Below are positions 3,010-21,221 of a stretch of DNA of 64,000 nt, piece by piece. The position numbers were made by a program, and so were the translations under genes. Numbering within the stretch: position 1 is the stretch's first letter; the number at the start of each line of letters is the position of its first letter. The notes under the pieces are model-generated. The model did not search any database. It was not told the DNA's origin and worked only from the letters and a program-made list of their open reading frames with translations. Origin of the DNA: an uncultured Spirochaetota bacterium (GTDB taxonomy: Bacteria > Spirochaetota > UBA4802 > UBA5550); contig CALMRZ010000065.1 in assembly GCA_937872225.1 (NCBI GenBank), positions 7,007 to 71,006 on the forward strand. The letters run 5' to 3'.

Positions 3010-3091
3010 ACCATCAATTCTCCTTAAACAACTAGCTTAATAGAAAGTATAGAATGTACCATGACAAATAGTGTCACATCGCATTAATTTT

Positions 3092-4516: not shown

Positions 4517-4789
4517 ATGAAACCCTATAAATCAATTTTTAATACCAGCAGCAATACTCGACGATTTACCAGAGTATCAAGGCATCACAAACAACGCGAA
4601 AGTATGAATAGAAAACCAATCATACCGCCGAGATATATTCCACTAACGGAACGTCTCGGTGAGCAAGTAGAAGAAAAGCACGTTACTCCGGTTGTACAAA
4701 ATGTCTTTGTTTTCAATTTTAATGGCGGAGAAAACATTGAGGATGTACTAACCGGAATTCTGAAGTGTATTAAACAGGCAGCACTTTGA
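4517..4789 (+). CDS. Hypothetical protein (90 aa)
   Basis: A strong RBS AAGGAGG lies 7 nt upstream of the ATG, and the terminator hairpin follows. AT-rich. Confidence 0.5.
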   Translation: MKPYKSIFNTSSNTRRFTRVSRHHKQRESMNRKPIIPPRYIPLTERLGEQVEEKHVTPVVQNVFVFNFNGGENIEDVLTGILKCIKQAAL

Positions 4790-4796
4790 TGAAAAC

Positions 4797-4846
4797 TAGA
4801 ACTAAGATTTCAGGCAATTACAGTATTTCTGAAATCTTAGTTCTTT
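4797..4846 (+). terminator. Rho-independent terminator-like hairpin
   Basis: A 14-bp perfect stem AACTAAGATTTCAG/CTGAAATCTTAGTT with a 15-nt loop, followed by TTTATAATTTT. Confidence 0.5.
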
Positions 4847-4912
4847 ATAATTTTCCAAAGAGAATATCTCTAAGGATTACTAATAATTAAACAACTCTGG
4901 GAGGAAGATACC

Positions 4913-5710: not shown

Positions 5711-5805
5711 TCTATACATAACTGCATAAATGTATTTATTTCTGGGGAAACATAATTGGAGAAAAAACAGCATTTTCAATACCCCAGAATTCTAAATGCC
5801 CACTT

Positions 5806-6002
5806 CCACCATCCAGATCATGAAATCCAGTAGGATATCATCAATCAATTGGTTCGAATACTGTCTTCCCGTGGGAGCATGGGCGCTTTTTCGAACTCCG
5901 GGAAGCGCCTTTTTATTTTCCGACCATTGTTGTTGCAATTATTGACAAAATGGTCGGTTCGGATAATGTCTTCCCGCAGCATTACGATAAGACTCGAACT
6001 CC
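5806..6002. repeat. Conserved intergenic repeat, copy 1 (~197 bp): 3' conserved block, terminator hairpin GGGCGCTTTTTCGAACTCCGGGAAGCGCC+T-run, then TTGACA-16-TAATGT promoter
   Basis: About 90% identical to 6705-6902. Contains an internal direct repeat GGTTCG(A/G)ATA(A/C)TGTCTTCCCG. The promoter elements are at 5942-5969. Confidence 0.7.
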
Positions 6003-6081
6003 ACAAACTACACTTAGAATAATTTATAGAAATCAAGATTTTTCTCTTGATTATTGTAACCCATTGGGTTACATTAATTTT

Positions 6082-6360
6082 GTGATAAAGAGTTTTAAAC
6101 ACAAAGGGCTGGAACAATTCTTTGATACTGGCAGCAAAAAAGGAATCCAGCCCGACCATGCATCGAAACTCGAACGTATTCTGGACAGGCTGGCAGCTGC
6201 CAAAAAACCGAAAGACATGAACCTGCCAGGTTATAAATTACATGTGTTATCCGGCAATAAGGCCGGTACCTGGGCAGTGAGCATCAGCGGTAATTGGAGA
6301 GTGACATTTAAATTTGAAGGTGAAGATGTGATAGTCGTTGATTATATTGACTATCATTGA
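6082..6360 (+). CDS. higB: HigB toxin (RelE/ParE superfamily mRNA interferase), GTG start
   Basis: (V)IKSFKHKGLEQFF...GNWRVTFKFEGEDVIVVDYIDYH aligns end-to-end with HigB (MIKSFKHKGL...ANWRITFQF...YEDYH). The ORF-track start at 5950 reads through the repeat and is rejected. Confidence 0.85.
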   Translation: MIKSFKHKGLEQFFDTGSKKGIQPDHASKLERILDRLAAAKKPKDMNLPGYKLHVLSGNKAGTWAVSISGNWRVTFKFEGEDVIVVDYIDYH

Positions 6361-6380
6361 AATCAACAAGGATTAACATC

Positions 6381-6680
6381 ATGAATATAACAAAAAGAAA
6401 ACCTGTGCATCCGGGGATCGTACTTCTTGAAGACGTGATAAAACCCCTCAATCTGACAATTACCAAGGCGTCTGAATGTATGGGTATATCCAGAAAAACA
6501 CTTTCAGAATTGGTGCATGGCCATTGTACGCTGACCCCCGAAATGGCCGTGCGGATTGGCGAAGCCACAGGTACCACCCCGGAAAGCTGGCTGGAAATGC
6601 AAAACAGGCTTTCTCTATGGGAAGCCAAACAGCATAAACCCCGAGTCAAACCATTGGCTGATATGTGTTGTGAAGCATGA
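6381..6680 (+). CDS. higA: HigA antitoxin (XRE-family HTH)
   Basis: PVHPGIVLLEDVIKPLNLTITKASECMGISRKTLSELVHGHCTLTPEMAVRIG...WLEMQNRLSLWEA matches HigA. An AGGA RBS lies 7 nt upstream of the ATG at 6381. The ORF-track start at 6357 is a TTG overlapping the higB stop. Confidence 0.85.
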   Translation: MNITKRKPVHPGIVLLEDVIKPLNLTITKASECMGISRKTLSELVHGHCTLTPEMAVRIGEATGTTPESWLEMQNRLSLWEAKQHKPRVKPLADMCCEA

Positions 6681-6704
6681 TAGATTTTAATCCTGTTTAC
6701 TGCC

Positions 6705-6902
6705 CCACCATCCAGATCATGAAATCCAGCAGGATATAATCAATCAGCTGGTTCGAATACTGTCTTCCCGTGGGAGCATGAGGCGCTTTTCGAAATCCGG
6801 GAAGCGCCTTTTTTATTTTCCGACCATTATTGTAGCGATTATTGACAAAATGGTTGGTTCGAATACTGTCTTCCCGCTGCATTACGATAAGACCCGAACT
6901 CC
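6705..6902. repeat. Conserved intergenic repeat, copy 2 (~198 bp): terminator hairpin GGCGCTTTTCGAAATCCGGGAAGCGCC+T-run, then TTGACA-16-TACTGT promoter
   Basis: Begins 25 bp after the higA stop. Promoter at 6842-6869, about 115 nt upstream of the mqsR ATG, the same spacing as copy 1 to the higB GTG. Confidence 0.7.
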
Positions 6903-6983
6903 CTTAAAGGCATTCATATCAATCATTTTTCTATTGACCATTCTGTATATTTTTAATATATTGACATTGTAAAGATATTATAA

Positions 6984-7286
6984 ATGGATAAATTTAAGGC
7001 ACATTATTCGCTGTTGCGGGTTAAGGCCCTGGTCAAAGAGGGCCGATATCGAATTACCGCTGCAGCTATTAAAAGCGGTTTTGAGGATTTTTCACTATTA
7101 TCAGAAGATCTTGCCGAATGTGAGCTCAGGCTTGAAGCATCGGACTTATACAAGTCAATGACGAGCCGTTTTGATGCAACCTTGTAGCAGGACGTTTATC
7201 ATACAAGGATTATTACCAAAATAGCCTATATTAAACTGCAAATTCTTGATGATGAAACGGTGATAATCTCATTCAAGGAGAAATGA
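6984..7286 (+). pseudogene. mqsR: mqsR toxin homologue interrupted by an in-frame TAG at 7185-7187 (conserved Trp codon TGG->TAG)
   Basis: MDKFKAHYSLLRVKALVKEGRYRITAAAIKSG...SDLYKSMTSRFDATL*QDVYHTRIITKIAYIKLQILDDETVIISFKEK matches MqsR, with the stop where MqsR has TIWQDVY. The reading frame continues intact to a TGA overlapping the mqsA ATG. Confidence 0.75.
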
Positions 7287-7287
7287 C

Positions 7288-7713
7288 ATGAAAGAAAAAA
7301 AATGGGTTGATTGCCCTTCCTGCGGGTCTAAAGGAACCATGAAATACAAAAAAGGCATGTCGGAAACATACCGCAACCCCGGATATGAACCGATAACCGT
7401 GACCAACCTTGACGGATATTTCTGCTCTGCCTGCGGTGAAGGGATATACAGCATTAAATCGAGTAAAATCATAACATCGAAGCTGACTGATGAAAAAGCG
7501 CGCCAGGACTCAAAACGGGTCGTCGCCTCTGACCTCATTGATGTTGATTCGGTTGCGAAGAAACTTTCGGTTACCAGGCAGCGAGTGCACCAGATGATGG
7601 ATGAAGGTAAAATATCATATGTGTATGTCGGGAAGCACAGATTCCCAGTCAGGGATAATGAAAGCTCGTATAAGAAGTTAAAGAAAAGAATACATACGAT
7701 AGCACATAATTGA
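7288..7713 (+). CDS. mqsA: MqsA-like antitoxin (N-terminal zinc-ribbon CPSCG...CSACG plus C-terminal XRE HTH)
   Basis: The zinc-ribbon plus HTH domain order matches MqsA, and the start overlaps the mqsR frame end (TGACATG). Confidence 0.75.
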   Translation: MKEKKWVDCPSCGSKGTMKYKKGMSETYRNPGYEPITVTNLDGYFCSACGEGIYSIKSSKIITSKLTDEKARQDSKRVVASDLIDVDSVAKKLSVTRQRVHQMMDEGKISYVYVGKHRFPVRDNESSYKKLKKRIHTIAHN

Positions 7714-7726
7714 TTATTTTATACTT

Positions 7727-7840
7727 CCACCGCCCAAATTATAAAATCCAGCAGGATATCATCCAAGAGCTGGTTCGATAACTGTACTCCCTTGGGAGCA
7801 GAATAGGACGTTTTAGAACTCACGGTAACGTGCTTTTTGT
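7727..7840. repeat. Conserved intergenic repeat, copy 3 (partial, more diverged): left block plus terminator-like hairpin GGACGTTTtagaactcacggtAACGTG + T-run
   Basis: Begins 14 bp after the mqsA stop. Shares AAATCCAGCAGGATAT..TGGTTCGA.A.CTGT..CCC.TGGGAGCA with copies 1 and 2 and lacks the promoter half. Confidence 0.55.
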
Positions 7841-8069
7841 TTATATGGGAACGCTTCGTGGTTCCGGTAAGGGCGGGATCATTATCCGTCAGCCCAGCTC
7901 CCGGTTGAATTTCTATCTGCTCATTCATGGCCATTATAGGCTCTTTCATCAAAAAGATGTAAGGCTTTTTCCATTGGATTCCCACAGTCTCTTTATTGAC
8001 AGCGATGCGCTCAGTCTTCTCATTTATTATCCGGGACTTTTTATCGTAATCAGCCGACGGCGGCGCACC

Positions 8070-10850
8070 CTACCGGGGATGCAGTACCATCAGGCATTTT
8101 ATTGTCAACTGATCCGGGAAATAATCATTCCTTGCCGCCCATTCATTGCGCGATTTTTCCACCCATCGGTCGAGCTCAAACGGCTCCATGTAATCGAGAC
8201 AGGTGTCCTCATCCGGTGCAGACCTGATGACCTGCATTATTTCATCCACATGATTGCTGTTAAGAACAATCCCCCCCTGTCTGTTAAAAATTGCGGGATA
8301 CAGTCTCGATTTGCTTGAAAATAAAACATACAAGCTCACGTCTTTTACTGCCGCCTGTTTAAAGCTCCTGATTCCGTCGGGAAGCCTTCTGTATTTTTTC
8401 AGCTCATGGTCCTGGAGGCCCGCCAGGTCATCAATGAAATTACTGGTGCTCAGATGGTCGGCATTTTCTATAAACCGCATGACCTCGTCGAGTTCAAGGT
8501 CCGCGTCGCCAAAATTATGCATGCATCGCGCAAGCTCGGTCATCTCGAAGGCCTCGCCTTTTTCCTCCACCATTACCGGGATGTCGGTGAAAGACCGCAT
8601 CTCCCTGTTTTTGGCCACAAGTCGGTTCTGCCAGTTAAGGGCGTGATGGATATCGCGATTGCCCATCGTTGACGGAATGAGATTGTACACGTATATCTCC
8701 CTCGGCACCTTCCATGGCCGCAGTATTCTTCCCATTCGCTGCGCCAGCACCAGGACGGTCCACGGCAGATCGAAATTGATCATTACCGAGGCGTCCTGGA
8801 AGTTGAACCCTTCGGACATGGCCGTGGTCGCCACGAGAATATCGATGGCACTCTCGTCGGTCTCCGCTCCATCGTCATCGCCCTGTATGTCAATGCTGTT
8901 GGCGACAGGGGCGAATCTCCTTATCAATTCCTCAATGTCTTCACTTTTATCCACGGTGTGCGCCACGGACTTCCCGGGAACAAGCCTTCCAATAATTTCG
9001 GTGATGTATTTGGCAGTCTCAATATAAAAGCAAAATATCACAATTTTCTTATCAACATGGGTTTTGACAATATCCATCAACCTGGCGATCTTATCCTCGA
9101 TGGCGGATGAATGTGCGGGATCGATATACGGAGCGATTTCCAGGCGCATCTCCGATGTTACCTGTGTAAGTTTGTCCTGGTTTTCAAAACGCATCTTCCT
9201 GAACCCCTCCTCCCTTTCCATCTTCGCGAGGAGTTCATCGGCCTGTTTCATGGAGGAGCAGAACTGGTGAACGACCCTCGCTTCGAAAAGCGGGTCGCGG
9301 TCGCCCGAGAGATAATCTTCGAAAAGAGAACCGTTGTCTTCATTGGCCGATCTGCGGTTGAGGAGCCCGCTTTTAAGAAGCCTTACCATCATGCCGTCGC
9401 ATTCGTTTCGGTATTCCATGTTCTTCATGTGTATGACCCTCGGGAAATACCTTTTCTGGTCGCCCGAGAAGAGGACAAAGCGCTCGTTCGCCGGATCCCT
9501 GTAGCTGAAGTGGGTCACCACCGTGGGCGATGTGAGGACTACTCCGGGGGAAATTTCCGAAAGCTCTCCGGCATTGATCACTTGCCAGGGGATGCCATGG
9601 TTTTCTCCCATGAGCGTTTTTTCCGTTCCACGAGGAGGAAGCAGGGCCAGCTGGTTATTGATATCATCAATTCCCCTGCTGTAGGGGGTCGCTGTCATGA
9701 GCAGCACTTTGGCCTGCTTGCTCACGGCGTCGATTATCCTTCTGTTGCGCAGCCGTATTTCGTTGCCTTCTTGGGAATTCCTCAAGTGGTGGCTCTCGTC
9801 AAGTATAATGATGGTTTTACCGTTCGCCCTTCGGAGTTCCCCCTCGAGCTCGGCGATATCACGGTAGTGCCGCCAATCCTCGACCGAAAGAATGTAATAT
9901 GAGAATTCGATGCTTGACAGGCGTGCAGCGCGCATCGTTCGCTGCCACATTCGTTTCAGCCCCGCTGGACACAAAACAATAGCTGCATCTATCTGGTTCT
10001 TCATCCGTAAGTATGCAACGGCATGAGCCGCCATAATGGTCTTTCCAAGGCCGGTGGAAGCCACAAGCATCGCGCCCCCGAATTCCTCGATATTACGAAG
10101 AATACGCGAGACCACAGGACGCTGATACCCTGCCAGCTGAGGCAACGTGCCCGTCTCTTCGTCGTCGGGAAGTCCGTACAGTTCGATGAGTGAACGAATA
10201 TATACATCAAAGGGTCGGTAAATTTTGAGCCATTCATCAAGACGATCGAGCAGCTCTTCGGCGATGCAGACGGCCTTATCGTAATAATAATCGAACTTTT
10301 CAACAAAAAATAAAACATCGTCGGTATCATAAATTGCAATACCCGCTTCACGGCTCGCAACAAGTCCATGCCTGGTAAAATTGGCCGAGGTGACCACGGC
10401 GGCCCGCTCATCGGCGATGTACAGCTTGGCGTGATGATATATATAGCGCGGGTCCATTGAGGTAGGGCCCTCATTGACCGAAACATTGACCAGGAACCTG
10501 CGGCTCCTGACAGCATCGCGAAGCTCCTCCATCGCTCTTGTCCTGTCATCTAATGGGGTCGTGGCGAGCGATTCAAAAAATTCCGAGATTACCTCGCTTA
10601 TCCTGTCTGCGCCCGTGTCCGGACGGCCCAACAGGAGCCTGACTTCCTTGCCTCGAAGCACCTCCCTGAGGCACTCATATCCCGCCGGCTCGAAATAGGC
10701 TGTTGCGATACGCACAACCGACGCGTCTTCAATCGTAGACCGTATAACGCGTAATGCCGCGCCCCCTCCTGAAAAGAAACGGGATAAGGATGCATTATTA
10801 TTTTGAGGAATATTCATAGTTCTATTTGCCCTGTGCATCTTTGTTGTCAA
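8070..10850 (-). CDS. Phospholipase-D-family (HKD) nuclease fused to an SNF2-family helicase (926 aa), with a ~200-aa C-terminal tail of unknown function
   Basis: N-terminal HxK-x4-D motif HHAKLYIADERAAVVTSANFT. SNF2_N features: QRPVVSRIL..MLVASTGLGKTIMAA (Walker A), ILDESHHLRN (DExH), LLMTATP. Helicase-C features: VATTAMSEGFNFQDASVMINFDLPW..QRMGRILR. Ends in TAG. GC-rich. Confidence 0.8.
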   Translation of the reverse strand: MTTKMHRANRTMNIPQNNNASLSRFFSGGGAALRVIRSTIEDASVVRIATAYFEPAGYECLREVLRGKEVRLLLGRPDTGADRISEVISEFFESLATTPLDDRTRAMEELRDAVRSRRFLVNVSVNEGPTSMDPRYIYHHAKLYIADERAAVVTSANFTRHGLVASREAGIAIYDTDDVLFFVEKFDYYYDKAVCIAEELLDRLDEWLKIYRPFDVYIRSLIELYGLPDDEETGTLPQLAGYQRPVVSRILRNIEEFGGAMLVASTGLGKTIMAAHAVAYLRMKNQIDAAIVLCPAGLKRMWQRTMRAARLSSIEFSYYILSVEDWRHYRDIAELEGELRRANGKTIIILDESHHLRNSQEGNEIRLRNRRIIDAVSKQAKVLLMTATPYSRGIDDINNQLALLPPRGTEKTLMGENHGIPWQVINAGELSEISPGVVLTSPTVVTHFSYRDPANERFVLFSGDQKRYFPRVIHMKNMEYRNECDGMMVRLLKSGLLNRRSANEDNGSLFEDYLSGDRDPLFEARVVHQFCSSMKQADELLAKMEREEGFRKMRFENQDKLTQVTSEMRLEIAPYIDPAHSSAIEDKIARLMDIVKTHVDKKIVIFCFYIETAKYITEIIGRLVPGKSVAHTVDKSEDIEELIRRFAPVANSIDIQGDDDGAETDESAIDILVATTAMSEGFNFQDASVMINFDLPWTVLVLAQRMGRILRPWKVPREIYVYNLIPSTMGNRDIHHALNWQNRLVAKNREMRSFTDIPVMVEEKGEAFEMTELARCMHNFGDADLELDEVMRFIENADHLSTSNFIDDLAGLQDHELKKYRRLPDGIRSFKQAAVKDVSLYVLFSSKSRLYPAIFNRQGGIVLNSNHVDEIMQVIRSAPDEDTCLDYMEPFELDRWVEKSRNEWAARNDYFPDQLTIKCLMVLHPR

Positions 10851-11093
10851 GAATTATCCTTATCAAGCGATTCCAGCAATAAGACCGATACCTCTTTTCC
10901 ACGGGAAGCTTAATAAGTTCCGGGCATTCTGTGGATACGGAGAGAAAATGAGAATTACATAACAGTACTTACCCAAAGCACATGCCTCGCCCTGGCATGA
11001 CCCACGTAGAGCAATTCCTCAGCAAGGAAGCGCGCCTTTTCTCCAGGGCCCGTTTGCAGAAGACACACTGTTTTTCAGACATGTTCCGATCTT

Positions 11094-12755
11094 CTATTCA
11101 TGCAAGAGTTGTTCCATCTCCGTGAGTTTATGCTTGACTTCATCAATACGGCCGGCGGTATCGGGGGTTCGCTCCATGAGGGATTCAACTAATTTAAGCT
11201 CGTTGTTGACATACAAGAGGGTCTGCTCCATCATGCGGTCCATTTCCCTGTAAATCTTCCCCGTTAAGTCCGAAACAAGGCGGTGGATATTTTTGTCCAC
11301 TTCACCGGGGATCTGACCGGCGAAAAAACGGGCGAAAATCTTCCTGAAGATAAACATGGGGAACAGGAACCAGAACATGTCGAGATGGAAATCAAAAGCC
11401 CTGCTTATTGAGATATCCGGTCGGCGTATATCGAACACAAGTTCTCCCCATTCTTCGGAATGCATGGAAATTCCGAGAGACTTGCTTATGTTTTCATTAA
11501 GCCGCTGGCGGAAAGACTTGAGATAAAAAGACAAGTGCTTCTTTGCGCCGGTTATAATATACGAGGAACGATCCTCTTCCAACAACAGCTTTTTTATTTC
11601 CGATGAGAGGGAATCTTTTATCCATGCTTCATATTGTTTCGTAAACGAGTAAAGCGTGCCTTTCCACCCGGGAAATGATTGTAAAAAATCAGCGGTCAGT
11701 CTCTCTATAATGGGTTTAATATACTCCTTCATATATTCGAACAGCGTCTCACGCGTTTCGTTTTTATAGCTGTCAAGAATGAACAGAAGTTCACGGCGGA
11801 CATAGTGGGCGTTCATATGCTCTTCAAAGACGGCCTTTTTGAGTTTTTCAAGCTCGCCGCGTTCGACCTTGGATGCCTGTCTCGCAATTTCAAGGTATGA
11901 AATACATGATTTTATCAGCGTGGATGCCTTATGGCGCACGATAGTATTGCGAACTTCGTCAACACGAACAAGCAGAGGACCAATGATCGAGGTTTCAATT
12001 TTATCAACATGCTTCCGCGTGTCCTTAACGGTAGAAAAGGGACACAGGGGAAACGAGCGCTCAAGGTTTGTATTTAACGCGTTTTCCGTAAAAGATACAA
12101 TATCCGCAACCTGCTTTTCAGAATACAGGTCAATCTTTGTAATTATTATATAAACTTCCGGGGAATAACGGAGGACATCCTCCAAGAGACGCATTTCGAC
12201 CTCTGAAATCGGACGTTCGGCGCTCATCACGAAAAGAACGGCGCCAGTCTCGGGAAACCAGCCAAGGGCCGTTTCAGTGTTGTGCTTCCATACGCTCCCG
12301 ATCCCGGGCGTATCGATGAGCCGGGCGCCGCCCCATTTTCTGAGTTCCGTGAGCTCGACATCGACTATGGCCACACCCTTCTCGTTTTCAGGATTGCCGG
12401 ATTCGGATACATATTCGTCGAGATCTTCAATTGTTGTTTCACGCACGCCGCCGCCGTTGAAGGTCACGAGCGCACGGTTGTTTTCCCCCGGAGAAAGCCT
12501 GGTAATGACTGACGTCACGGGAATACTGCCCACGGGAAGGACCGCCGTTCCGGTGAGGGCGTTCAGGAACGAACTCTTGCCGGCTTTGAATTGTCCGAGA
12601 ACGGCTATGTCGAGGTAACGCTGTTCGTTGACGAAACGCAGCACGGAACCGGCGACCTTTTCAATGCTTTGAAGGTTAAATTCAGTGCTTACAGCTTCAA
12701 CGACATGAATCGCGCTTATTGCGCGTTCGCGTAAAGAAACCGCATTTTCAATCAT
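11094..12755 (-). CDS. Dynamin-family large GTPase (bacterial dynamin-like / LeoA-like)
   Basis: G1 P-loop GQFKAGKSSFLNALTG, G3 DTPG, G4 TKID. The rest is long helical stalk-like sequence. A GGAGG RBS and 13-nt gap couple it to the upstream small membrane gene. Confidence 0.8.
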   Translation of the reverse strand: MIENAVSLRERAISAIHVVEAVSTEFNLQSIEKVAGSVLRFVNEQRYLDIAVLGQFKAGKSSFLNALTGTAVLPVGSIPVTSVITRLSPGENNRALVTFNGGGVRETTIEDLDEYVSESGNPENEKGVAIVDVELTELRKWGGARLIDTPGIGSVWKHNTETALGWFPETGAVLFVMSAERPISEVEMRLLEDVLRYSPEVYIIITKIDLYSEKQVADIVSFTENALNTNLERSFPLCPFSTVKDTRKHVDKIETSIIGPLLVRVDEVRNTIVRHKASTLIKSCISYLEIARQASKVERGELEKLKKAVFEEHMNAHYVRRELLFILDSYKNETRETLFEYMKEYIKPIIERLTADFLQSFPGWKGTLYSFTKQYEAWIKDSLSSEIKKLLLEEDRSSYIITGAKKHLSFYLKSFRQRLNENISKSLGISMHSEEWGELVFDIRRPDISISRAFDFHLDMFWFLFPMFIFRKIFARFFAGQIPGEVDKNIHRLVSDLTGKIYREMDRMMEQTLLYVNNELKLVESLMERTPDTAGRIDEVKHKLTEMEQLLHE

Positions 12756-12768
12756 GTTTATGACCTCC

Positions 12769-12987
12769 TTATTGCCCTCTGAATAGAAACAACGCGACCC
12801 CCGAGCAGATGATCGCCATGATAAAGGCCAATACGGCCATTTCTACGGCAAAAGCGGTTTTCTTTTTTCTGCTTATTCCCGGAAAATGACTCCAGCCGCT
12901 GTAAGCATTCATAAATGCCATGACTGACCCAATTATGCCGAAAGGGACGGCGAGAATCACGATTGCAAATATGACCCGCTTGTCCAT
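12769..12987 (-). CDS. Small two-helix membrane protein (72 aa), first gene of the dynamin / PLD-SNF2 module
   Basis: Two hydrophobic segments (VIFAIVILAVPFGIIGSVMAF and FAVEMAVLAFIMAIICSGVALFLF) separated by a basic loop. Confidence 0.5.
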   Translation of the reverse strand: MDKRVIFAIVILAVPFGIIGSVMAFMNAYSGWSHFPGISRKKKTAFAVEMAVLAFIMAIICSGVALFLFRGQ

Positions 12988-13104
12988 GTGCGCATCCTCA
13001 TTGCTTCAGCTTGGTCGCGAACACGGCTGATGCGCCGAGTTCACGCTCTATTTCAAGGAGACGGCTGTATTGTGCGATCAGCTCGCTCCCGCAGGCCGAT
13101 CCAG

Positions 13105-13365
13105 TCATGGTCTGTCCGCCTCACATAATGTGGTCAAAGCCCCGAGAAAGCCGGTAACGAAAAAAAGACGAAAGGACGGATTTATCATGTTTTTTTCGCT
13201 GGCGAGAGAGAATATCGAGTTTATCAAAAAACAGCCGGAAAGATTTACGAACAATGCGCCTATGGGGAAACGATCGGTGAATAATTTGTCGGCCAGCAAT
13301 GAGATTAAATAACGGGAAACCGCCCCGATGCTACCTCCAGCCGCTACGAAAAGTATCTTTTCCAA
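13105..13365 (-). pseudogene. crcB: crcB (FluC fluoride channel) remnant: N-terminal 86 codons only; all three frames hit stops where the last ~40 residues should be
   Basis: (M)EKILFVAAGGSIGAVSRYLIS...FPIGALFVNLSGCFLI...VTGFLGALTT matches FluC through TM3 and then ...LCEADRP*. TTG start with a GGAGGAG RBS. Sits directly downstream of a fluoride riboswitch. Confidence 0.6.
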
Positions 13366-13398
13366 ATCTCCTCCATAAATATATATCCATAGTATTCA

Positions 13399-13450
13399 TG
13401 CAGGAGTCATCAGCCATCGGGCAGTTAACGGTGAACTCCATCACCTTTGG
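13399..13450 (-). ncRNA. Fluoride riboswitch (crcB RNA motif) aptamer
   Basis: The minus strand reads AAAGGUGAUGGAGUUCACCGUUAACUGCCCGAUGGCUGAUGACUCCUGCA, containing GGnGAUGGnGUUCnCC, AACUGCC and CUGAUGAnUCCUnC of the consensus. The 3' CUCCUGCAU can pair with the downstream AUGGAGGAG covering the RBS, a translational ON-switch design. Confidence 0.7.
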
Positions 13451-13540
13451 CACGGTGATCATTACATATTCAGGTTAACACAAAAACATAATAGACATTT
13501 ATATGTCAAGAACATATTCATTACGTGACCACTGTTTGCA

Positions 13541-14128
13541 TTAAGACTCTTCGATACGTTGTTTCACCATCACTAGTGCCTTTAATCGTCCGTCAGCCAT
13601 ACGGACTTCTTCGGGCATCTCCATACTCAGCGCCATTTCTTCCATAATTTCACAAATGGATTCATTTTTCATATCAACCAGAATATCCTCAATGTCCTGC
13701 CGCAGGTGCCATGGGGCATTTATTATTTCAATCATCCGGTTCACGATGGTACTGCGATCTGCACTTGAAGCAAAGGCCCTGCCGATCGGATGTCTGTGCA
13801 TGTGACTTTTCTTTTCCCTCTCGGTTTCAGGCCAGGACCTGACTGAGCCGGCAATTGACGACTTGACCCCCGCAAGAAAAAACAGGAATACCGGCATTAT
13901 CTCGCCCCGGGCGTCGATCAGCATTTTCCCGGCGACAGCGATGATCTCTCGCCCCTCATAGCCTATTACCGGTCCGACGAAAACATAAAAGACCCGAACC
14001 TTTACGCCCGGTTCACGCTCACCACAACGAAAATTTATGCGATACTGGGCCACAAGACCGACCGCATCTTCGCCGGTGTCAAACCCCTGCTGGAGCATTC
14101 GATCTATGCGGCCTGGAGGTCCTACCAA
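13541..14128 (-). CDS. Hypothetical protein (up to 195 aa; start uncertain)
   Basis: ORF on the minus strand with moderate GC. No motif recognised. Competes with antisense ORFs. Confidence 0.35.
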   Translation of the reverse strand: MVGPPGRIDRMLQQGFDTGEDAVGLVAQYRINFRCGEREPGVKVRVFYVFVGPVIGYEGREIIAVAGKMLIDARGEIMPVFLFFLAGVKSSIAGSVRSWPETEREKKSHMHRHPIGRAFASSADRSTIVNRMIEIINAPWHLRQDIEDILVDMKNESICEIMEEMALSMEMPEEVRMADGRLKALVMVKQRIEES

Positions 14129-14157
14129 CAGGGATATGACGACAGGCGTCGTACCAC

Positions 14158-14817
14158 TTGTACCGCCTGTCGGTATTGACGCCCAATGGGCACAAATACG
14201 TCAACATGCCGCGCCGGCATGGGCAGATCAAGCCGGGCATCGAGATAGTGTTGAACGACGTACAGGATAAAAGCATGGAACGTGTCAATCACGGCTACAT
14301 GGTCCGCCTTGCATACAATTACGCCCGGCGCATCGGATACGGAACCTGGCATGACTACGACCGTCTCTTTTTCAGGGAAAAACTGGGCACAAACCGGGCC
14401 CCTCCGACCGGGCACACCGAGGGGATCTGGTGCGAATCCGGCATACGAAACACGCACCGGTTCTATTCCAACGCCGGCGGCTATTACGACTTCAAGGGCG
14501 ATTTCAATCTGCTGGTTGATGTATACGGTGGATATTTCATCGGCGTGGACCGGAACAATGCCGAGCAGATCGGCGGCTATCTTCAGGATTACGGGGTGAC
14601 GCACGGCTATTAGTCGCCGAATTTCTACCATCGCTTGTACGTGATCTCGCGCCTACAGGTCGGATTCCCGATCCCATTCTGGGACGCCCGCATCCAGCCC
14701 GGGTTCAACATGATATACATGCCGACAAAGAACCAGGTCATCGGTATGGGCAGGGGAGCCATCTGGAACCGGTGGCTGGTGCTCATGGCGTTTGAAAAGA
14801 ACCAGACGCCCCAATGA
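14158..14817 (+). pseudogene. Outer-membrane beta-barrel-like protein fragment interrupted by an in-frame TAG at 14611-14613 and lacking a signal peptide
   Basis: A Gly/aromatic-rich sequence (GGYYDFKGDFNLLVDVYGGYFIGVD...GYLQDYGVTHGY*SPNFYHRLYVISRLQVGFPIPFWDARIQPGFNMIYMP) continues in the same frame across the stop (the 14635 ORF). The N-terminus looks truncated. Confidence 0.4.
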
Positions 14818-14840
14818 TGAAGGCTACCGCCGGGTAACGG

Positions 14841-16652
14841 CTACCTGCGTCGAAGCAGAATGGCGGTGAGATCGTCCCTCAGGGGCCGGTTGCCGATGAA
14901 GCGTTCCATGTCTCCGATGATGCGGGCCATGGTCCCGTCGGTGCTTCCGGCCGGGGCCCGCCTGAAGGAATCAACGAGACGGTCAAGGCCGTAGCGGTTT
15001 TTCGCGCTGTCGATGCATTCCACGAGGCCGTCCGTGTAGGCCAGTATCAGGTCGCCGGGGTTGACTTCAAACGTGACAACCGTGAATTTCGGCACGATGG
15101 AATCAATGCCGAGGAAGCCTCCCCGTATGTCCTGTCCCGCGTTGTCGATCACGCTGACGTCTCCGGCGGCGCTTCGCATGAGGAGGTGCGTATGGCCGGC
15201 ATTGACGTATTCCGCCGTGCCGTCGTTGAAGCGGATAAGCATGCCGGTCATAAAATCGTCCAGCTTCCCGATCTCCTTCACCAGTTCATTGTTGATGGCC
15301 GTCAGCACCTCGTCCAGCGGCCGGTCCCTCATGGCATTGAACCCTTTAAAGACAAGGGACCGCGCTATTATCGTTATAAGTCCCGCGGATACGCCGTGGC
15401 CTGACACATCGAAAAGGGAAACGCCCCGCAGCGTGTCGCCTGCCTGGTAAAAGTCATAGAAATCTCCCGAGACCGGCAACAAAGGCCTGAAGACGGTGCT
15501 GATCTCCCACGCCGTATCATCAGGCGGCGTACTGTGAAACAGCCTGGACTGTATCTGCGCGGCCATCTCCATCTCGACCTGCATCATGGCCTGGAATTTA
15601 CGGAGCTGGCGGTTCTCCCTGAGGTCATATCCGACGAACACAACGCCCAGCAGGTCGCCTTCGCTGTCGCGGAGGGCCGACATTGACAGCCGCACCGGGA
15701 TATCACTCCCTGCACGCGGCATGATATTGACCTCTATGCTGTCGTGGTCCAGGGGGGACTCCTTGAACCGTGAAATCGCGTCCCCGACAAGTTCCCGCTC
15801 CCTGATCAAGGAGTGGATCGCCTTTCCCGTGATATCGTCCTGTTCCATCTCCATGATTCTGCGCGTATGCGGGTTTGTCTGCCGTATGAAGCCTTCGTGG
15901 TCTGACAGGAAAAGGAGATCGTTCATGCTGTTGATGATCGTGCTGGCCGCGAAGGACGTGTCGATCTTCATCATGCCGTATTTGTGTATCGCGTACCAGA
16001 GGCCGAACATCCAGACCAGGATTATGATTGGCGCGATCAGGGGATAGCGGACAACGCCGGCGAACGGAAGGATGTTGTCGAAAACCGAGGCGCCTGTCAG
16101 CGAGATAATGGAGGTCACGAGGAAAATCCGTACCTGTTTTCTCACGCGCCGGTGGGGGCTCTTCTTACCCCACCGGTACAGGGCGTACCAGGCGATCCCC
16201 AGGACCAGGTAATAGGCGGTAAGGTAAAGAAATATCCAGACCGGCCCGATATCGTAGACCGTTATCCACCCGCCTGACACGCGGTGCATCAGGGAGGTGT
16301 CAATAAGAAAGCCGTTGACCCATATGAATGCCGCCGCCGGCGTCCCGTAGACCACAAGGTAAAAGACCTTCCCCGTCAGATGCTCATTTCTCGACAGCAG
16401 CATCACCAGGTGGAGGATGAAGGGGATGAAGAACAGCCATCCAAAGGTCGACAGGTGGTACCAGCAGAATGCCACATCCACGTCTTCACTTATATGCATG
16501 AAGGCGTAGGCGAAGGACCATAACGCAAAATTCATGCAGACAACAAGCATCTGGATGTTGATGCGGGATTGCCTGTTAAGCTGATAGGTCGTTATGCCCA
16601 GATACAGGTATATCAGGAAAGAGAAAAGCAACAGGGTGGATACAACATTCAC
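14841..16652 (-). CDS. Membrane sensor: N-terminal multi-TM domain, PAS-like region, and PP2C-family (SpoIIE/RsbU-like) Ser/Thr phosphatase
   Basis: N-terminal multi-TM region, then the PP2C motifs SGDFYDF and DVSGHGVSAGL and a later DGLVE. Confidence 0.75.
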   Translation of the reverse strand: MNVVSTLLLFSFLIYLYLGITTYQLNRQSRINIQMLVVCMNFALWSFAYAFMHISEDVDVAFCWYHLSTFGWLFFIPFILHLVMLLSRNEHLTGKVFYLVVYGTPAAAFIWVNGFLIDTSLMHRVSGGWITVYDIGPVWIFLYLTAYYLVLGIAWYALYRWGKKSPHRRVRKQVRIFLVTSIISLTGASVFDNILPFAGVVRYPLIAPIIILVWMFGLWYAIHKYGMMKIDTSFAASTIINSMNDLLFLSDHEGFIRQTNPHTRRIMEMEQDDITGKAIHSLIRERELVGDAISRFKESPLDHDSIEVNIMPRAGSDIPVRLSMSALRDSEGDLLGVVFVGYDLRENRQLRKFQAMMQVEMEMAAQIQSRLFHSTPPDDTAWEISTVFRPLLPVSGDFYDFYQAGDTLRGVSLFDVSGHGVSAGLITIIARSLVFKGFNAMRDRPLDEVLTAINNELVKEIGKLDDFMTGMLIRFNDGTAEYVNAGHTHLLMRSAAGDVSVIDNAGQDIRGGFLGIDSIVPKFTVVTFEVNPGDLILAYTDGLVECIDSAKNRYGLDRLVDSFRRAPAGSTDGTMARIIGDMERFIGNRPLRDDLTAILLRRR

Positions 16653-16940
16653 CGTTTCACCCCATGCCGGCGGTTGCTACGCCTGGATCCGCGATTTTGA
16701 TCATATCGCACACATGGCCCCCATAGTCTAAAAAAATTCAAAACCATTCAGTTTATCATTAAATCTTTATTATAGCAAGAAAAAAAAACCGCTATTTGAC
16801 CTCTTTAAAACAAGGAAAGCCCCCACCAATTCTGCTCGATCACGGTATGAAATGCGCAAAAAAACCTGTTGTTAATACGGTGTTGTCGCGAGTACCATGT
16901 GTGCGGGTGACGTGCAACTGCGGGCCACACAACGGCAGGG

Positions 16941-16974
16941 GTGAAAAGCCGCATCCCGCCCTTCCCCATGCGGC
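16941..16974 (-). terminator. Rho-independent terminator for the outer-membrane-protein gene
   Basis: On the minus strand, GCCGCATggggaagggcgggATGCGGC followed by TTTTCAC. Confidence 0.5.
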
Positions 16975-17036
16975 CCTTCCGAAAAACCGGCATTAAGAAA
17001 CAATCACCATCAGCGGAATGAACCCGGGCTGTCCGG

Positions 17037-17765
17037 TCATTCATCATCCTGCATGTTCCTTGATTTTTCCGTGAACCGGTACAGGACACCCACCGTGGCA
17101 TATCCCTCGTATCCCGTCGCTGACGCCTTGCCGTCGCCGACCTCGTGAGACGATCCGTACACCGACGTGGAGAGGTGGAAGCCGCCCTCGAAAGAAAGGC
17201 GCAGATTGGGGTATACCTCATAATCCACTCCCAATGCCAGGCCCGTTCCGATGGGAAGTATCCTATATCTCCTTTTTCTGTAAACAGGGACATTGGTGGC
17301 AATAAAATCGCTGTACAGAAACATGCTGCTGGATGAATCCTTGCCCCAGATATAGAAGAGGTTCAGCTGGGGCCCGAACCAGACGAAGAAATCATCGGTC
17401 CTGAACGGCACATAGGAGAAGGTATTGACCAGGGAAAAGCGGGCTATGTCAAACCGTTTGGCAATAAACGCTTCCAAGCCCAGGTTCTGCCTCAGCATGA
17501 ACCGTCCGTCAAGAAATTCACCGGTCCACACCAGTCCGCCGCCAGCCATCACCGCGGTGCTCATTGAAGGCGGTGTCCGCGTGACAAAAATATAAGTCGA
17601 TGACCGGGACACGCTCCAGGTGTAGCCGCCGGCCTCTGTTGAAATATAGGCGCCGGCGCAATAGGTGTTGGCCAGGGAAGCTGCCGGACGCAGCATGACA
17701 CACCCGATAGCGATGAACGCCGTCAAACATATCGCGCCTGACAGATGGGTCTTCAATGGATTCAT
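17037..17765 (-). CDS. Outer-membrane beta-barrel protein (start taken at MNPLKTHLSGAICLTAFIAIG signal peptide)
   Basis: Signal peptide, alternating aromatic/Gly beta-strand pattern, and a C-terminal ...VGVLYRF. The longer ORF-track start at 17840 is rejected. Confidence 0.55.
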   Translation of the reverse strand: MNPLKTHLSGAICLTAFIAIGCVMLRPAASLANTYCAGAYISTEAGGYTWSVSRSSTYIFVTRTPPSMSTAVMAGGGLVWTGEFLDGRFMLRQNLGLEAFIAKRFDIARFSLVNTFSYVPFRTDDFFVWFGPQLNLFYIWGKDSSSSMFLYSDFIATNVPVYRKRRYRILPIGTGLALGVDYEVYPNLRLSFEGGFHLSTSVYGSSHEVGDGKASATGYEGYATVGVLYRFTEKSRNMQDDE

Positions 17766-18029
17766 GGTTTTACTCCTCATCGTGGTTCCCGGTTCCGACG
17801 CCGAGGTTCTTACCCGGCGCATCGTGCATGGTGCCTGCATGAAAAAGCATTCATTCGGGCAACATGGACAAGTATGAAAAAAAACAGTCTATCCGGTGTC
17901 CCGCAATCAACAGATACCATCCCGGTCAGATGTCCAGCGCTTTTCTCATGGCATTCATTGTACCCGGAGCGTTCAATTCCCGGATCAGGGAAATATCTTT
18001 TCCCGGTTCGTCGCATCACGAAAACATTT

Positions 18030-19517
18030 TCATTGGGACAGGGTCACCCAAGCCTTCCCCGTGCCGGAGCCGGTGCAGGACAATAATTGTCCCGAGACGG
18101 CACAGCTGCCGCCCGGTATGCTGTGTGAAAGCGTTTTATCATTTTTATAGTCTTCCGGTAAATAAATCTCTGTCGCGGCGTCGGGCAGCGTTGTGGTCCA
18201 TGTCAGGGTAAACCCGGCATCTGTAAGGGTAAAGATCCCCGGCGTGCCCGCAATTTTCTGCGGATAGGGCCGCGGGGTATAATTTGCCCGCAGCCGGCCG
18301 GCATCGTCAACAATGCTGAAGTCCTCCATGTTCCATCCGTCCTTTAACGCGCTTGTCCAGCCGGGGGTATAGCACCAATGGATCCCCGACGCGAAGTGGT
18401 CATCAAGCCAGTCATACTGGGCCGCTATGTACCCGGCTACATTATCGGTTTCCGCAGGCGCGCCGAATTCGCTCAACACCAGGGGGACGCCCCAGGATCC
18501 GGCCTTGTCAAGGAGGGCATTCAGCGAATCCCCGGGATCATTGCCCCGCCAGGACTTGAAAAGGGCCACCATGCCGTCGTAGAAATGCGGGGAATAGGCG
18601 AAATTGGCGAAGGACGGCTTTGCCATGGTGTTGGACGCCATGCCGCTGGACACGATGGCCTTGGGCGGCACAAAGAGTATGGTGTTGGGGTGCCGGCCGC
18701 GGATTTTGCCGGCAACCAGCTCAAAAAACTCCTCCAGCTGATCATTGGACCCCCAGGGCTCGTTGATCAGTTCGTACCCTATGACATTGTCGTATTGGGA
18801 CATCCGGTAGGCGACGGCCTCCACCATGTCCAAATACCTGGTGCGCACGCCGTAGAGGTCCCGGTGAAAGTCCCGCCACGTTTTCTGGTGCGACAGGCTG
18901 AAAACCATCCGCAGGCCCCACGAGGAACAGGCCTCGCCGTTGTCAGGGGTCGCGTGCTTCACCGCCGGCGTAACCGCCCATTCCGGAAAACCCTCGCCGC
19001 AGCCGCCGATGGAATAGCGTGAATAGGCATCCTGGTGGAAGTCCACCAGCACATACAGGCCCCGTTCCCTGGCCCAGCTAACGATCCGCTCGTAATAATC
19101 CAGGTAGTCTTCGTCATAGGCGCACCGTGTCGACTCCAATGCTTCCCAGGTGAAGAGGAGCCTGATCGTGTTGAATCCCCAGCCGGGAAGCGGGTCAAGC
19201 ATGTCGCCGCTGGCAATGGGCATGAAGTCCGGGACCTTCGAATTTCCGGAGACATTGATGCCGCGCAGGATGACTATCCTTCCATGGCTGTCTTTGAAAT
19301 AATTCCCGTCAACGACGAGTGGGGCCGCGGCGGGCGCAGGCGGATCATAGGCGACCGCAGGGCACGGTTCCGGCACCGGGGCGACAGGGGTTCTATCAGC
19401 CTCGAACAACAAAAGCGCGGTTTCAGTCAACGATTTTGAATCCTCCTTGTTGTCGGTATCGCATGAAACAGCAAGAGAGACAATAGCGACCATGATCATT
19501 GTAGCAATTTTTTTCAT
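18030..19517 (-). CDS. Glycoside hydrolase family 5 lipoprotein (endoglycoceramidase/cellulase-like)
   Basis: Lipobox in MKKIATMIMVAIVSLAVSC. GH5 acid/base LINEPW and nucleophile LSEFG. A proline-rich linker follows the signal peptide. Confidence 0.75.
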   Translation of the reverse strand: MKKIATMIMVAIVSLAVSCDTDNKEDSKSLTETALLLFEADRTPVAPVPEPCPAVAYDPPAPAAAPLVVDGNYFKDSHGRIVILRGINVSGNSKVPDFMPIASGDMLDPLPGWGFNTIRLLFTWEALESTRCAYDEDYLDYYERIVSWARERGLYVLVDFHQDAYSRYSIGGCGEGFPEWAVTPAVKHATPDNGEACSSWGLRMVFSLSHQKTWRDFHRDLYGVRTRYLDMVEAVAYRMSQYDNVIGYELINEPWGSNDQLEEFFELVAGKIRGRHPNTILFVPPKAIVSSGMASNTMAKPSFANFAYSPHFYDGMVALFKSWRGNDPGDSLNALLDKAGSWGVPLVLSEFGAPAETDNVAGYIAAQYDWLDDHFASGIHWCYTPGWTSALKDGWNMEDFSIVDDAGRLRANYTPRPYPQKIAGTPGIFTLTDAGFTLTWTTTLPDAATEIYLPEDYKNDKTLSHSIPGGSCAVSGQLLSCTGSGTGKAWVTLSQ

Positions 19518-19715
19518 TACCCGGCGTCTCCGATTACTGGTATTGCAGGCACGATGCATGAACACCTGTTCTTGACAGTGGGAGATAATGACCACCGTGT
19601 TCAATATGGCAAGTGCTTTTTGCAGGACCATGACGTCAAATAGGCATTATAATGAAGCGGTATTGACCCGGCGTAAAAAATGCTTGATGCCACCCCCCCT
19701 TAAAAATCATAATGC

Positions 19716-21221
19716 ATGATATTCTTTATGACAAGCGGGCTTCCCATGAACCAGAAAGAACAATACCGGGCCTTGTTCGAACCACGGTCGATAGCATTCA
19801 TCGGCGCGTCAACCGCGGTGACCAAGTGGGGGTTCAACATCCTTCACCACCTCTACAGGGGGGGGTTCGACGGCGTTATTTATCCGGTCAATCCCCAGGG
19901 AGGGACCTGGTTCGGCAGGGAAATGTATAAAAGCCTTGCCGTTGTCCCCCGCCCCGTCGACCTGGCCGTGATCGTCGTGCCCAAGGAACTGGTGCCCGGG
20001 ACGATGCGGGATTGCGCCGCCGCGGGCATACGGGCCGCGGTGGTCATCACCGCCGGTTTCAGCGAGACCGGTCCGGAGGGCGCAGCGCTGGAACAGGAGA
20101 TGCTTGCCATCGCCGGCGAAAACGGCATCCGCGTCGTGGGGCCCAATACCATGGGCGTCTTCAGCGCCTATCCCTCTCCCGTGCAGTCCGTCATGATGTC
20201 GACGAAGATCAGGCAGGGCGGCGTCGCCATTGTATCCCAGAGCGGCAACCTGGGGACCTCCATGACGTACCGTTTGAACCGCCGCGAGATCGGCATAAGC
20301 CGCCTTATCAGCTCCGGCAACGAGGCTGACCTGAAGATCGAGGATTACCTGGAGTACCTTGAAACTGACGATAAAACGAGGATCATATGCCTCTACGTTG
20401 AGGGGTTGCGGCAGGGACGCCGGTTCCTGGATACAGCCCGCCGGGTCGCCCTCAAAAAGCCAATCATCCTCCTCAAGGGCGGCACCGGGACCATCGGCGC
20501 AGGCGCGGCCATGTCCCACACCGGCGCGCTGGCGGGAAGTTACGCCGTGTTTCACGCCATGTGCAGCCAGGCCAATATCATCCTGGCCGATACCCTTGAC
20601 GAAGTGGCCGACGTGGCGGGCCTCCTGCTCTCCCAGCCGGAGTTTATCGGCAAGCGGATCGGCATCGTGACCCAGGGCGGCGGCTGGGGCGTCATATCGG
20701 CCGACCTGTGCGAGAAGGCGGGCCTTGAGGTCCCTCCCATAGATGAACGCGTCGTGTCGGAGCTTGACGCGATCCTGCCCCCCTTCTGGAGCAGGCGCAA
20801 CCCCATCGACCTCGTCGCGCCGGGGAAAATATCCATGATCACGGATTCCATCGCCGCTCTGCTGGAGCACGGGGACATGGACGCCATACTGCTCCTGGGG
20901 CTCGGGTACATGACCGCCCGGGCGCGGCGCTGGCTCGATTCGCCGATCCTTCCCGTCGAGGCCATGGAACAGCCCGCGCGCAAGATGATCGACGGCGAGA
21001 TGGAGCTCCTTGACCTCGTGGTGAAGCAGATACGGAATTTTAAAAAGCCGATAATCCCGGTCATTGACCTGGTGGCCTTCGACGAACCGGCGGCGTGCAA
21101 CATTGTCAGGCACCTGGACAGCGAGGGGATCATGGCCTACTCTTCACCGGAACAGGCCATCGGCGCCATTGCCAGGGCGCAGGACTATTTCAGGAAAAGA
21201 CGCGCCCGTGCAGACCGCTAG
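19716..21221 (+). CDS. Acyl-CoA synthetase (NDP-forming) / CoA-binding domain protein (acetate-CoA ligase alpha-like); start possibly at 19746
   Basis: CoA-binding N-terminus (SIAFIGAS...GFDGVIYPVNP) followed by a succinyl-CoA-synthetase-like ligase region. Confidence 0.65.
   Translation: MIFFMTSGLPMNQKEQYRALFEPRSIAFIGASTAVTKWGFNILHHLYRGGFDGVIYPVNPQGGTWFGREMYKSLAVVPRPVDLAVIVVPKELVPGTMRDCAAAGIRAAVVITAGFSETGPEGAALEQEMLAIAGENGIRVVGPNTMGVFSAYPSPVQSVMMSTKIRQGGVAIVSQSGNLGTSMTYRLNRREIGISRLISSGNEADLKIEDYLEYLETDDKTRIICLYVEGLRQGRRFLDTARRVALKKPIILLKGGTGTIGAGAAMSHTGALAGSYAVFHAMCSQANIILADTLDEVADVAGLLLSQPEFIGKRIGIVTQGGGWGVISADLCEKAGLEVPPIDERVVSELDAILPPFWSRRNPIDLVAPGKISMITDSIAALLEHGDMDAILLLGLGYMTARARRWLDSPILPVEAMEQPARKMIDGEMELLDLVVKQIRNFKKPIIPVIDLVAFDEPAACNIVRHLDSEGIMAYSSPEQAIGAIARAQDYFRKRRARADR

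Follow-up and report, generated by a model that had tools for sequence, protein, structure and literature searches.

In a 64,000-nucleotide (nt) stretch of DNA from an uncultured Spirochaetota bacterium (GenBank assembly GCA_937872225.1, contig CALMRZ010000065.1, positions 7,007 to 71,006; hereafter the window), a fluoride riboswitch stands in front of a broken copy of crcB, the gene for a fluoride channel. The locus is likely to be what a single internal deletion has left of a fluoride-response operon with many genes, with the switch still governing what is left of its payload, a small protein with two transmembrane (TM) helices and a dynamin-like GTPase. To judge from homology on either side of the scar, about 4.7 kb has almost certainly been lost inside the operon, from codon 80 of crcB to codon 384 of an enolase gene, and the scar is not the junction of an island. 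An earlier sequence-only reading had placed the boundary of an accessory region here.

The riboswitch aptamer (13394-13454, minus strand) matches the Rfam fluoride model RF01734 over its whole length (model positions 1-64 of 64, cmscan), with 59.3 bits against a gathering score of 34 (E 6.7e-14). It is the sole Rfam match in the window. A custom covariance model, R1, gives it 71.8 bits. Helices P1 and P2 are present, as are the invariant core and pseudoknot nucleotides (GAUGG.GU...CUGAUGACUCCU), and every column that is invariant in alignments of 13 relatives (A3) and of six relatives (A4) is retained. The Rfam score is comparable to that of an intact operon in a relative, L088 (63.2 bits). 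Only 28 nt separate the 3' end of the aptamer from the TTG start of crcB on the same strand. The expression platform is a predicted 39-nt hairpin (13368-13406, minus strand), in which the 3' tail of the aptamer, CUCCUGCAUGAAUA, pairs with UAUUUAUGGAGGAG. In the minimum free energy fold (-30.9 kcal/mol, z = -2.9 against shuffles, RNAfold), CUCCU from the tail pairs with the Shine-Dalgarno (SD) sequence AGGAG (13368-13372) of the TTG codon (13363-13365), and the SD is predicted to be sequestered in the hairpin. The homologous hairpin of L088 differs in sequence but keeps the pairing in fold prediction (z = -4.6). When the leader was examined for terminators, its hairpin was found to have no trailing U-tract. 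The sequence-only reading had described a textbook fluoride riboswitch of translational ON design. The first description stands, the Infernal score being far above the gathering threshold, and the second is upheld computationally by the CUCCU/AGGAG pairing and its retention in L088. That the aptamer binds fluoride and switches expression is, in the same way, a prediction from covariance score and fold. Two other features nearby are probably due to chance. One is a terminator-like hairpin (13313-13327) inside the conserved coding sequence of crcB. The other is a 15-nt near-repeat (14 of 15 bases) between the 3' tail of the riboswitch (13393-13407, ACTCCTGCATGAATA, minus strand) and the end of the dynamin gene (11095-11109, ACTCTTGCATGAATA), where the second copy covers the last dynamin codons and the stop.

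The gene directly behind this switch is, on the evidence of its sequence, a dead pseudogene. An open reading frame (ORF) of 86 codons (13105-13365, minus strand) begins at the TTG and matches the Pfam family CRCB (PF02537) with 61.9 bits against a cut-off of 32.9 (E 8e-17). The match covers profile positions 1-66 of 103 and stops there, in agreement with the truncation claimed earlier. The earlier claim that 86 codons of crcB survive is only partly right. The ORF does have that length, but genuine CrcB ends after codon 79 (13129-13365, ending ...GFLGALTT), and the last seven codons (LCEADRP) and the TGA stop are read out of frame from other DNA. These 79 codons encode a sequence 73% identical to residues 1-79 of L088 CrcB (tblastn) and keep the GG..GA..RY and N41 motifs. 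Absent are TM3b, TM4 and the TTFSTF motif, which supplies the pore phenylalanines in characterised Flucs. This leaves an incomplete version of a four-TM protomer that normally has about 120-130 amino acids (aa). Three near-invariant sites have also changed (G30T, T37A, G49N), to residues seen in none of 118 aligned CrcB homologues, restricted to lengths of 110-150 aa. What if a local sequencing error hides the rest of the gene? All three frames are closed downstream of the stub, as the sequence-only reading had stated, and the missing 45 codons were not found in any frame or elsewhere in the window by tblastn and frame inspection. No full-length frame can be recovered by error correction. The closest full-length CrcB proteins in a collection of 5.8 billion protein clusters are 69-75% identical, with none above 75%, and the best identity among the scanned genome contigs of GTDB representatives is 68%, which means that the species itself is missing from those contigs.

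The stub abuts the tail of another fluoride-regulon gene, enolase, and what lies behind it is therefore not island DNA. CrcB homology ends at 13129 (tblastn), and homology to the operon of a second relative, L169, begins at 13126 (blastn). At the junction (13126-13128), the first two bases of crcB codon 80 (TT) are joined to the ATG of enolase codon 384. The blastn alignment (window 13126-11143, L169 9630-11613) has 82% nucleotide identity and starts exactly at that enolase codon. With tblastx, window positions 13380-13129 align with the crcB of L004, the shorter version of L088, and 13126-13007 with the end of its enolase, with the small ORF and dynamin next, ordered as in L004. The interval equivalent to the deleted one spans 10240-14922 in L088, or 4683 bp. 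None of the missing genes was found in the window when all L088 operon proteins were used as tblastn queries; a lone weak match to Usp (39452-39838) is unrelated. The deletion scar claimed in the sequence-only reading is thus real, with codon 80 of one gene fused to codon 384 of another. No tRNA gene was found at window positions 1-20000 and no repeats or insertion sequence ends flank the junction. Promoter and terminator scans around it gave nothing informative, and the nearest intact sequence is too diverged for microhomology at the breakpoints to be compared.

The enolase remnant (12998-13126, minus strand, 129 nt) comprises 42 codons, 384-425. It is recognised by Pfam Enolase_C at profile positions 259-290 of 296 (E 6e-5) and by tblastn, in which residues 380-423 of the L088 enolase align to window positions 13138-13007. 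The full Enolase_N domain and Enolase_C triosephosphate isomerase barrel of a complete protein (~425 aa) are lacking. An in-frame TGA lies at 13121-13123, and a residual ORF of 36 codons occupies 12998-13108 (minus strand). Residues conserved in the enolases of three relatives have been lost (QIKTG to QTMTG, RSER to GSEL). The nonsynonymous divergence (dN) of the remnant from L169 is 0.21, compared with 0.07 for the same segment between intact relatives at similar synonymous divergence (dS). In other words, both remnants show relaxed constraint, given the in-frame stop, the dN and the altered conserved residues, and the deletion is old enough for both to have gained changes at conserved sites and for the stop to have arisen. 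The TGA of the crcB stub overlaps the ATG of the 36-codon ORF as ATGA (13105-13108, minus strand), and this ATG arose from the conserved Lys codon of the enolase QIKTG motif (AAG to ATG). The overlap may be a coincidence, or it may keep the downstream genes translationally coupled.

The original layout can be read from relatives. L088, which extends L004, was found through a CrcB search (CrcB P0003) and comes from the NCBI metagenome-assembled genome (MAG) GCA_030154545.1. Behind its riboswitch are crcB (124 aa), a DUF190/CBS gene (427 aa), a Na+/H+ exchanger (406 aa), a universal stress protein (Usp, 139 aa), a HEAT-repeat protein (128 aa), enolase (426 aa), a 74-aa ORF, a dynamin-like GTPase (541 aa) and a HIT-family gene, in that order. 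Three more operons, L169, L170 and L171, were found by a dynamin search and are the closest relatives by dynamin (87, 80 and 76% identical, respectively), each headed by an RF01734 match at the gathering threshold. In L169 the riboswitch is followed by NhaP, Usp, HEAT, enolase, a 71-aa ORF, dynamin and HIT, in L170 by NhaP, a 72-aa ORF and dynamin, and in L171 by HEAT, NhaP, enolase, a 64-aa ORF and dynamin. The small ORF and dynamin thus form the 3' end of a fluoride operon in all four. Intergenic gaps of 10-31 nt are operon-like in the window, L088, L169 and L171. The ancestral order inferred from these comparisons would be riboswitch, crcB, DUF190/CBS, NhaP antiporter, Usp, HEAT, enolase, small two-TM protein and dynamin. 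A comparison with relatives had been proposed as a check on the supposed boundary. An intact riboswitch-crcB locus does exist in L088, but its gene order shows that the window has an internal deletion and not an island edge. Three further loci, L005-L007 (CrcB 69% identical), carry crcB-DUF190/CBS-NhaP-Usp but neither an RF01734 match nor dynamin, and were set aside as uninformative.

The same relatives contain another uncharacterised family that may be linked to the fluoride riboswitch. Its members are soluble proteins of about 125-140 aa with no Pfam match and with the motifs HLIF(I/V)K, SFH and W(F/Y)PFLWGE. They lie directly behind minus-strand fluoride riboswitches in L169 (5504-5926, minus strand, behind two riboswitches in tandem) and likewise in L171 (5681-6082, minus strand). 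In L088 a similar protein (9457-9828, plus strand) is encoded just upstream of the crcB riboswitch.

What remains behind the scar is a pair of intact genes. The first (12769-12987, minus strand) encodes a 72-aa protein with homologues at the same position in L169 (80% identity), L170 (62%), L171 (44%) and L088 (41%). It consists of two hydrophobic helices that flank a conserved NAYSGWSHFPGISRKKK loop. The gene has its own SD, GAGGA, starts 10 nt past the stop of the remnant ORF and has a dN/dS ratio (omega) of 0.16 against L169. The second (11094-12755, minus strand) starts 13 nt past the stop of the first and encodes a GTPase of 553 aa related to the bacterial dynamins BDLP and IniA (Pfam Dynamin_N, 87.7 bits against a cut-off of 27). 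Its G motifs are intact (G1 GQFKAGKS at 54, G3 DTPG at 148, G4 TKID at 206) and invariant across the family, and its omega against L169 is 0.08. Both genes are, as their omega values indicate, under purifying selection. This bears on the claim that the riboswitch drives only a dead gene, which does not hold, since it still heads two intact ones.

An AlphaFold2 model of the dynamin (pLDDT 83.6, pTM 0.72) has BDLP 2j69 (E 2e-18) and IniA 6j72 (E 4e-18) as its best full-length Foldseek matches. The predicted structure has a long helical neck and trunk and the overall architecture of BDLP, and a hydrophobic segment, DMFWFLFPMFIF, at residues 459-470, after a low-confidence loop, is the predicted membrane tip. 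Neither Pfam nor NCBIfam has a family specific to the dynamin or to the 72-aa protein. A LeoABC-type anti-phage system was also considered. The PADLOC LeoA profile matches the dynamin with 42 bits, with the best stretch confined to residues 22-72, no Leo partner genes are nearby, and the neighbours are fluoride-operon genes. This candidate was rejected on the grounds of weak similarity limited to the GTPase domain and the lack of partners.

Is the association of this dynamin with a fluoride riboswitch peculiar to these few genomes? Homologues were first seen in the loci retrieved with CrcB queries, in crcB/enolase/NhaP clusters of Elusimicrobia, Armatimonadia and Deltaproteobacteria MAGs, often directly behind a fluoride riboswitch. 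A CrcB query is biased towards such a result. To remove the bias, metagenome contigs were searched with a dynamin-only profile and no reference to crcB, which gave 80 loci (704 kb in total) with full-length homologues 28-39% identical to the window dynamin. A covariance model built from six RF01734 matches finds 93 riboswitches in these 704 kb. For scale, the whole 64-kb window contains one. At least one match is present in 62 of the 80 loci. In 52 of them (49 by a conservative count) a riboswitch lies directly upstream of the dynamin, on the same strand and within about 190 nt of its estimated start. Rfam's own model confirms 18 of 20 loci tested and adds none in 14 loci without a match; it confirms L089 and gives no support to L160. 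A riboswitch, fluoride-type neighbours or both accompany the dynamin in 66 loci, the neighbours being enolase (33), NhaP (19), Usp (13) and CrcB (6). It is therefore very likely, on these genomic associations, that the dynamin family is a genuine target of fluoride riboswitches in general.

The family is large: among clusters formed at 50% identity, 2,524 representatives match at E <= 1e-30. Its carriers are mostly anaerobes and belong to several phyla. Among them is the cultured Syntrophomonas palmitatica, in which an RF01734 match heads a locus running from enolase to dynamin with other genes in between. The complete genome of Ca. Formimonas warabiya has riboswitch, two MutS-like genes, CrcB, DUF190 and dynamin. 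In that genome (L183, CP017634.1) the two MutS_V-domain genes stand in tandem between the riboswitch and crcB-DUF190-dynamin (735-3799), and two weaker riboswitch-like matches (3830-3902 and 4865-4936) fall below the Rfam gathering score. Several metagenome loci carry many riboswitches within 10-15 kb (seven in L146, five in L029, others in L156, L150, L153 and L097), with a different gene behind each one, all within a large fluoride cluster to which the dynamin belongs. L103 has a group II intron domain (RF02003, 75 bits) at 3296-3435, about 1.3 kb downstream of a riboswitch-controlled dynamin.

Does the riboswitch in the window still control the small ORF and dynamin? The comparative evidence leans towards it. 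One argument is that 49-52 of the 80 dynamin homologues have a fluoride riboswitch directly upstream, so that the switch in the window probably still has a real payload. Without fluoride, the 3' tail of the aptamer would pair with the SD of the stub. With fluoride, formation of the pseudoknot would free it. Translation of the stub could then allow the small TM protein and the dynamin to be made, through relief of Rho-type polarity or through coupling. The coupling chain would run from the stub through the ATGA overlap to the 36-codon ORF, across 10 nt to the small ORF and across 13 nt to the dynamin, and no intrinsic terminator was found between these frames. The same translational platform heads a nine-gene operon in L088, which argues that polarity or coupling works in this design. 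The deletion may thus have cut a long operon down to its minimum, a riboswitch close in front of a dynamin, which is the commonest layout for the dynamin family. The sequence-only reading also expected a fluoride-sensitive cell unless another exporter exists. At this locus crcB is missing from the three closest relatives too, and it is quite possible that an exporter is encoded elsewhere in the genome, because only about 15% of Flucs are regulated by a riboswitch (PMC11139923).

Several points weigh against this interpretation, either of the present function or of the history behind it. That the small ORF and dynamin share a transcript with the riboswitch is suggested only by spacing and synteny. 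The platform acts on the SD of the stub, and it would need polarity or coupling to affect genes that lie 250-600 nt further downstream. Both downstream genes have a good SD of their own, and an internal promoter is possible. Diversity within the species is low, and the perfect conservation of the aptamer therefore says little about selection. The excess dN of the enolase remnant is calculated from 42 codons only. Finally, the ancestral layout had to be taken from the more distant L088, because the operons of L169-L171, the nearest relatives by dynamin, begin without crcB.

Most of the points about function are shared by the main rival, which is that the riboswitch is a relic, now functionless and simply not yet decayed, and that the small ORF and dynamin are expressed independently of fluoride from their own promoter and SDs. 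This explanation gains from the fact that the platform governs translation of a dead ORF, that the SDs of both downstream genes are strong, that the leader has no intrinsic terminator for transcriptional control, and that the species is too uniform to reveal selection on the aptamer. It is nonetheless unlikely. Decay is visible in both coding remnants, but the aptamer has lost none of its invariant nucleotides and scores 59.3 bits against the 63.2 of the intact operon. In 49-52 of 80 unrelated loci the dynamin comes immediately after a fluoride riboswitch, which makes fluoride control the norm for the family, and a translational platform of the same kind heads all nine genes of the L088 operon.

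A multi-step origin concerns the history of the locus. The riboswitch-crcB locus might have recombined with an L169-like operon, or successive smaller deletions might have removed the intervening genes. The operon is evolutionarily fluid, as the absence of crcB at the head of L169-L171 and the variable gene content among them attest, and a history of this kind is possible. It is improbable, though, because L088 shows that the full colinear order exists, a single deletion explains both breakpoints, and no second scar or repeat is visible.

The sequence-only reading itself, in which an accessory island carrying dynamin and PLD-SNF2 was inserted in crcB or a deletion occurred at the island's edge, and the riboswitch was orphaned, is now very improbable. 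It accounts for a truncated crcB beside an intact riboswitch. It also draws on two real features of the region downstream. One is the PLD-SNF2 helicase (8070-10850, minus strand), which in its own right resembles candidate single-gene defence helicases, with partial matches to PADLOC 'HKD+Snf2' and PLD_Helicase and to an NCBIfam anti-phage PLD family. The other is the GC content, which falls to 28-43% below about 8000. However, the stub is abutted by the tail of enolase and not by island DNA, and in the four relatives' operons cited the small ORF and dynamin follow as operon genes. There the dynamin is followed by HIT or other genes and never by PLD-SNF2, so that the proposed 'dynamin/PLD-SNF2 module' falls apart. 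The similarity of the dynamin to the defence protein LeoA is weak and lies in the GTPase domain, and no tRNA gene, integrase or flanking repeat marks the junction.

Variation within the species tells the same story. Three JGI contigs have exactly the same bases at the junction, and so do ten assemblies that differ in sample and source (JGI, ENA and the NCBI MAGs GCA_029548125.1 and GCA_035450805.1). The 86-aa stub protein occurs on eight contigs and the identical dynamin on at least 20, and all ten places read share the junction, with no intact crcB allele among them. In this Spirochaetota species the deletion appears to have reached fixation. The ten assemblies have zero mismatches between the start of the riboswitch and the end of the dynamin, the aptamer included, with single-nucleotide polymorphisms upstream and differing gene content downstream, by which they form three groups. 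Their colinearity breaks only at about 5905 or about 4955, beyond PLD-SNF2 and two toxin-antitoxin pairs (MqsA/MqsR and HigB/HTH; 7288-7713, 6984-7187 and 5950-6680, downstream of the dynamin), which are common to all ten. Below about 5905 (NadA and others in L176, L177 and L181) or about 4955 the gene content differs, and this is where the real variable region of the species lies. At 12987-13105, synteny continues, there are no tRNAs or repeats, and the site is invariant in the ten assemblies. The claim that the scar marks the boundary of an accessory region is contradicted by the enolase remnant, the operon synteny in four relatives and the position of the strain break. Judged by gene order, an accessory region, if there is one, begins beyond the dynamin stop (11094) and not at 12987-13105. 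The genes that flank the operons of L169, L088, L170 and L171 (HIT and others) have no syntenic matches in the window. Far downstream, in a low-GC segment (about 29-37%), a 195-aa ORF (942-1529, minus strand) contains only a DnaA-type or IstB-like AAA ATPase domain (Pfam Bac_DnaA, E 5e-38) and fits mobile or foreign DNA.

The window comes from a metagenome assembly and MAG contigs can be chimeric, but that a chimera or local error hides a full-length crcB frame is scarcely credible, because at least ten assemblies, made from different samples with different pipelines, have the same junction, and because the absence of 45 CrcB codons leaves no frame to restore.

How does the locus compare with known systems? 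It is like other translational ON riboswitches of RF01734 in its full-length match, its invariant nucleotides, its position 5' of crcB and a 3' pseudoknot strand that doubles as the anti-SD. It differs in that its first regulated ORF is a dead stub, and any physiological output is left to genes that lie more than 250 nt further downstream. The fluoride operon of Enterobacter cloacae FRM is ppaC-uspA-eno-gpmA-crcB-orf5249 (PMC5533749), and the genes associated with the riboswitch include Fluc, CLC-F, Na+/H+ antiporters, pyrophosphatase, HAD phosphatases, enolase and formate hydrogen lyase (2024 review, PMC11139923). The reconstructed ancestral operon resembles these sets in placing crcB, a Na+/H+ antiporter, Usp and enolase behind one riboswitch. 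Unlike them, it closes with genes for a two-TM protein and a dynamin-like GTPase, both absent from the published sets, and the window has since lost every classical member. The crcB stub aligns with a CrcB/Fluc channel over its first 79 residues and lacks TM3b, TM4 and the TTFSTF motif. The dynamin is predicted to share the G domain with motifs G1-G4, the helical neck and trunk and the hydrophobic tip with Nostoc BDLP (2j68/2j69), mycobacterial IniA (6j72) and Campylobacter DLP1/2 (5owv), and IniA is induced by stress. Unlike these proteins, with which its identity is only 15-18%, it is a single protein of 540-560 aa, paired in this lineage with a 72-aa TM protein and linked to a fluoride riboswitch.

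A decaying crcB behind an intact riboswitch is, taken alone, an ordinary and routine find. The dynamin is what gives the locus a wider meaning. To our knowledge, regulation by a fluoride riboswitch has not been described for any dynamin. A full-text search of 8 million papers found none that links the two, although the supplement of the founding study (Baker et al., 2012) may list one. As far as could be checked, then, the link is undescribed, and it is experimentally tractable. There is perhaps an even chance that BDLP/IniA-like dynamins are an unrecognised core output of fluoride riboswitches, of which the window would be a 'minimal' case, with exporter, antiporter and enolase gone and riboswitch, dynamin and two-TM partner kept. 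For those who annotate genomes the locus is also a caution, because a truncated gene beside unusual genes need not mark the boundary of an island.

The functions under riboswitch control, namely export, pH homeostasis and enzymes that phosphate analogues inhibit, have served as a list from which to infer how fluoride is toxic. The dynamin, which lies directly behind a riboswitch in about 60% of the loci sampled, extends the list by a putative membrane-remodelling GTPase. What bacterial dynamin-like proteins do in the cell is still poorly defined, and those who study them would gain a defined inducing signal. What might the dynamin do? The BDLP/IniA-like fold and the TM partner point to a role at the membrane, and by analogy the pair probably remodels or repairs the membrane during fluoride or HF stress. 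Alternatively, the GTPase itself may respond to fluoride through metal-fluoride complexes, which mimic the gamma-phosphate of GTP and lock dynamins in an assembled transition state. If the first of these ideas is true, fluoride stress would have a component of membrane damage or remodelling that is countered by a dynamin.

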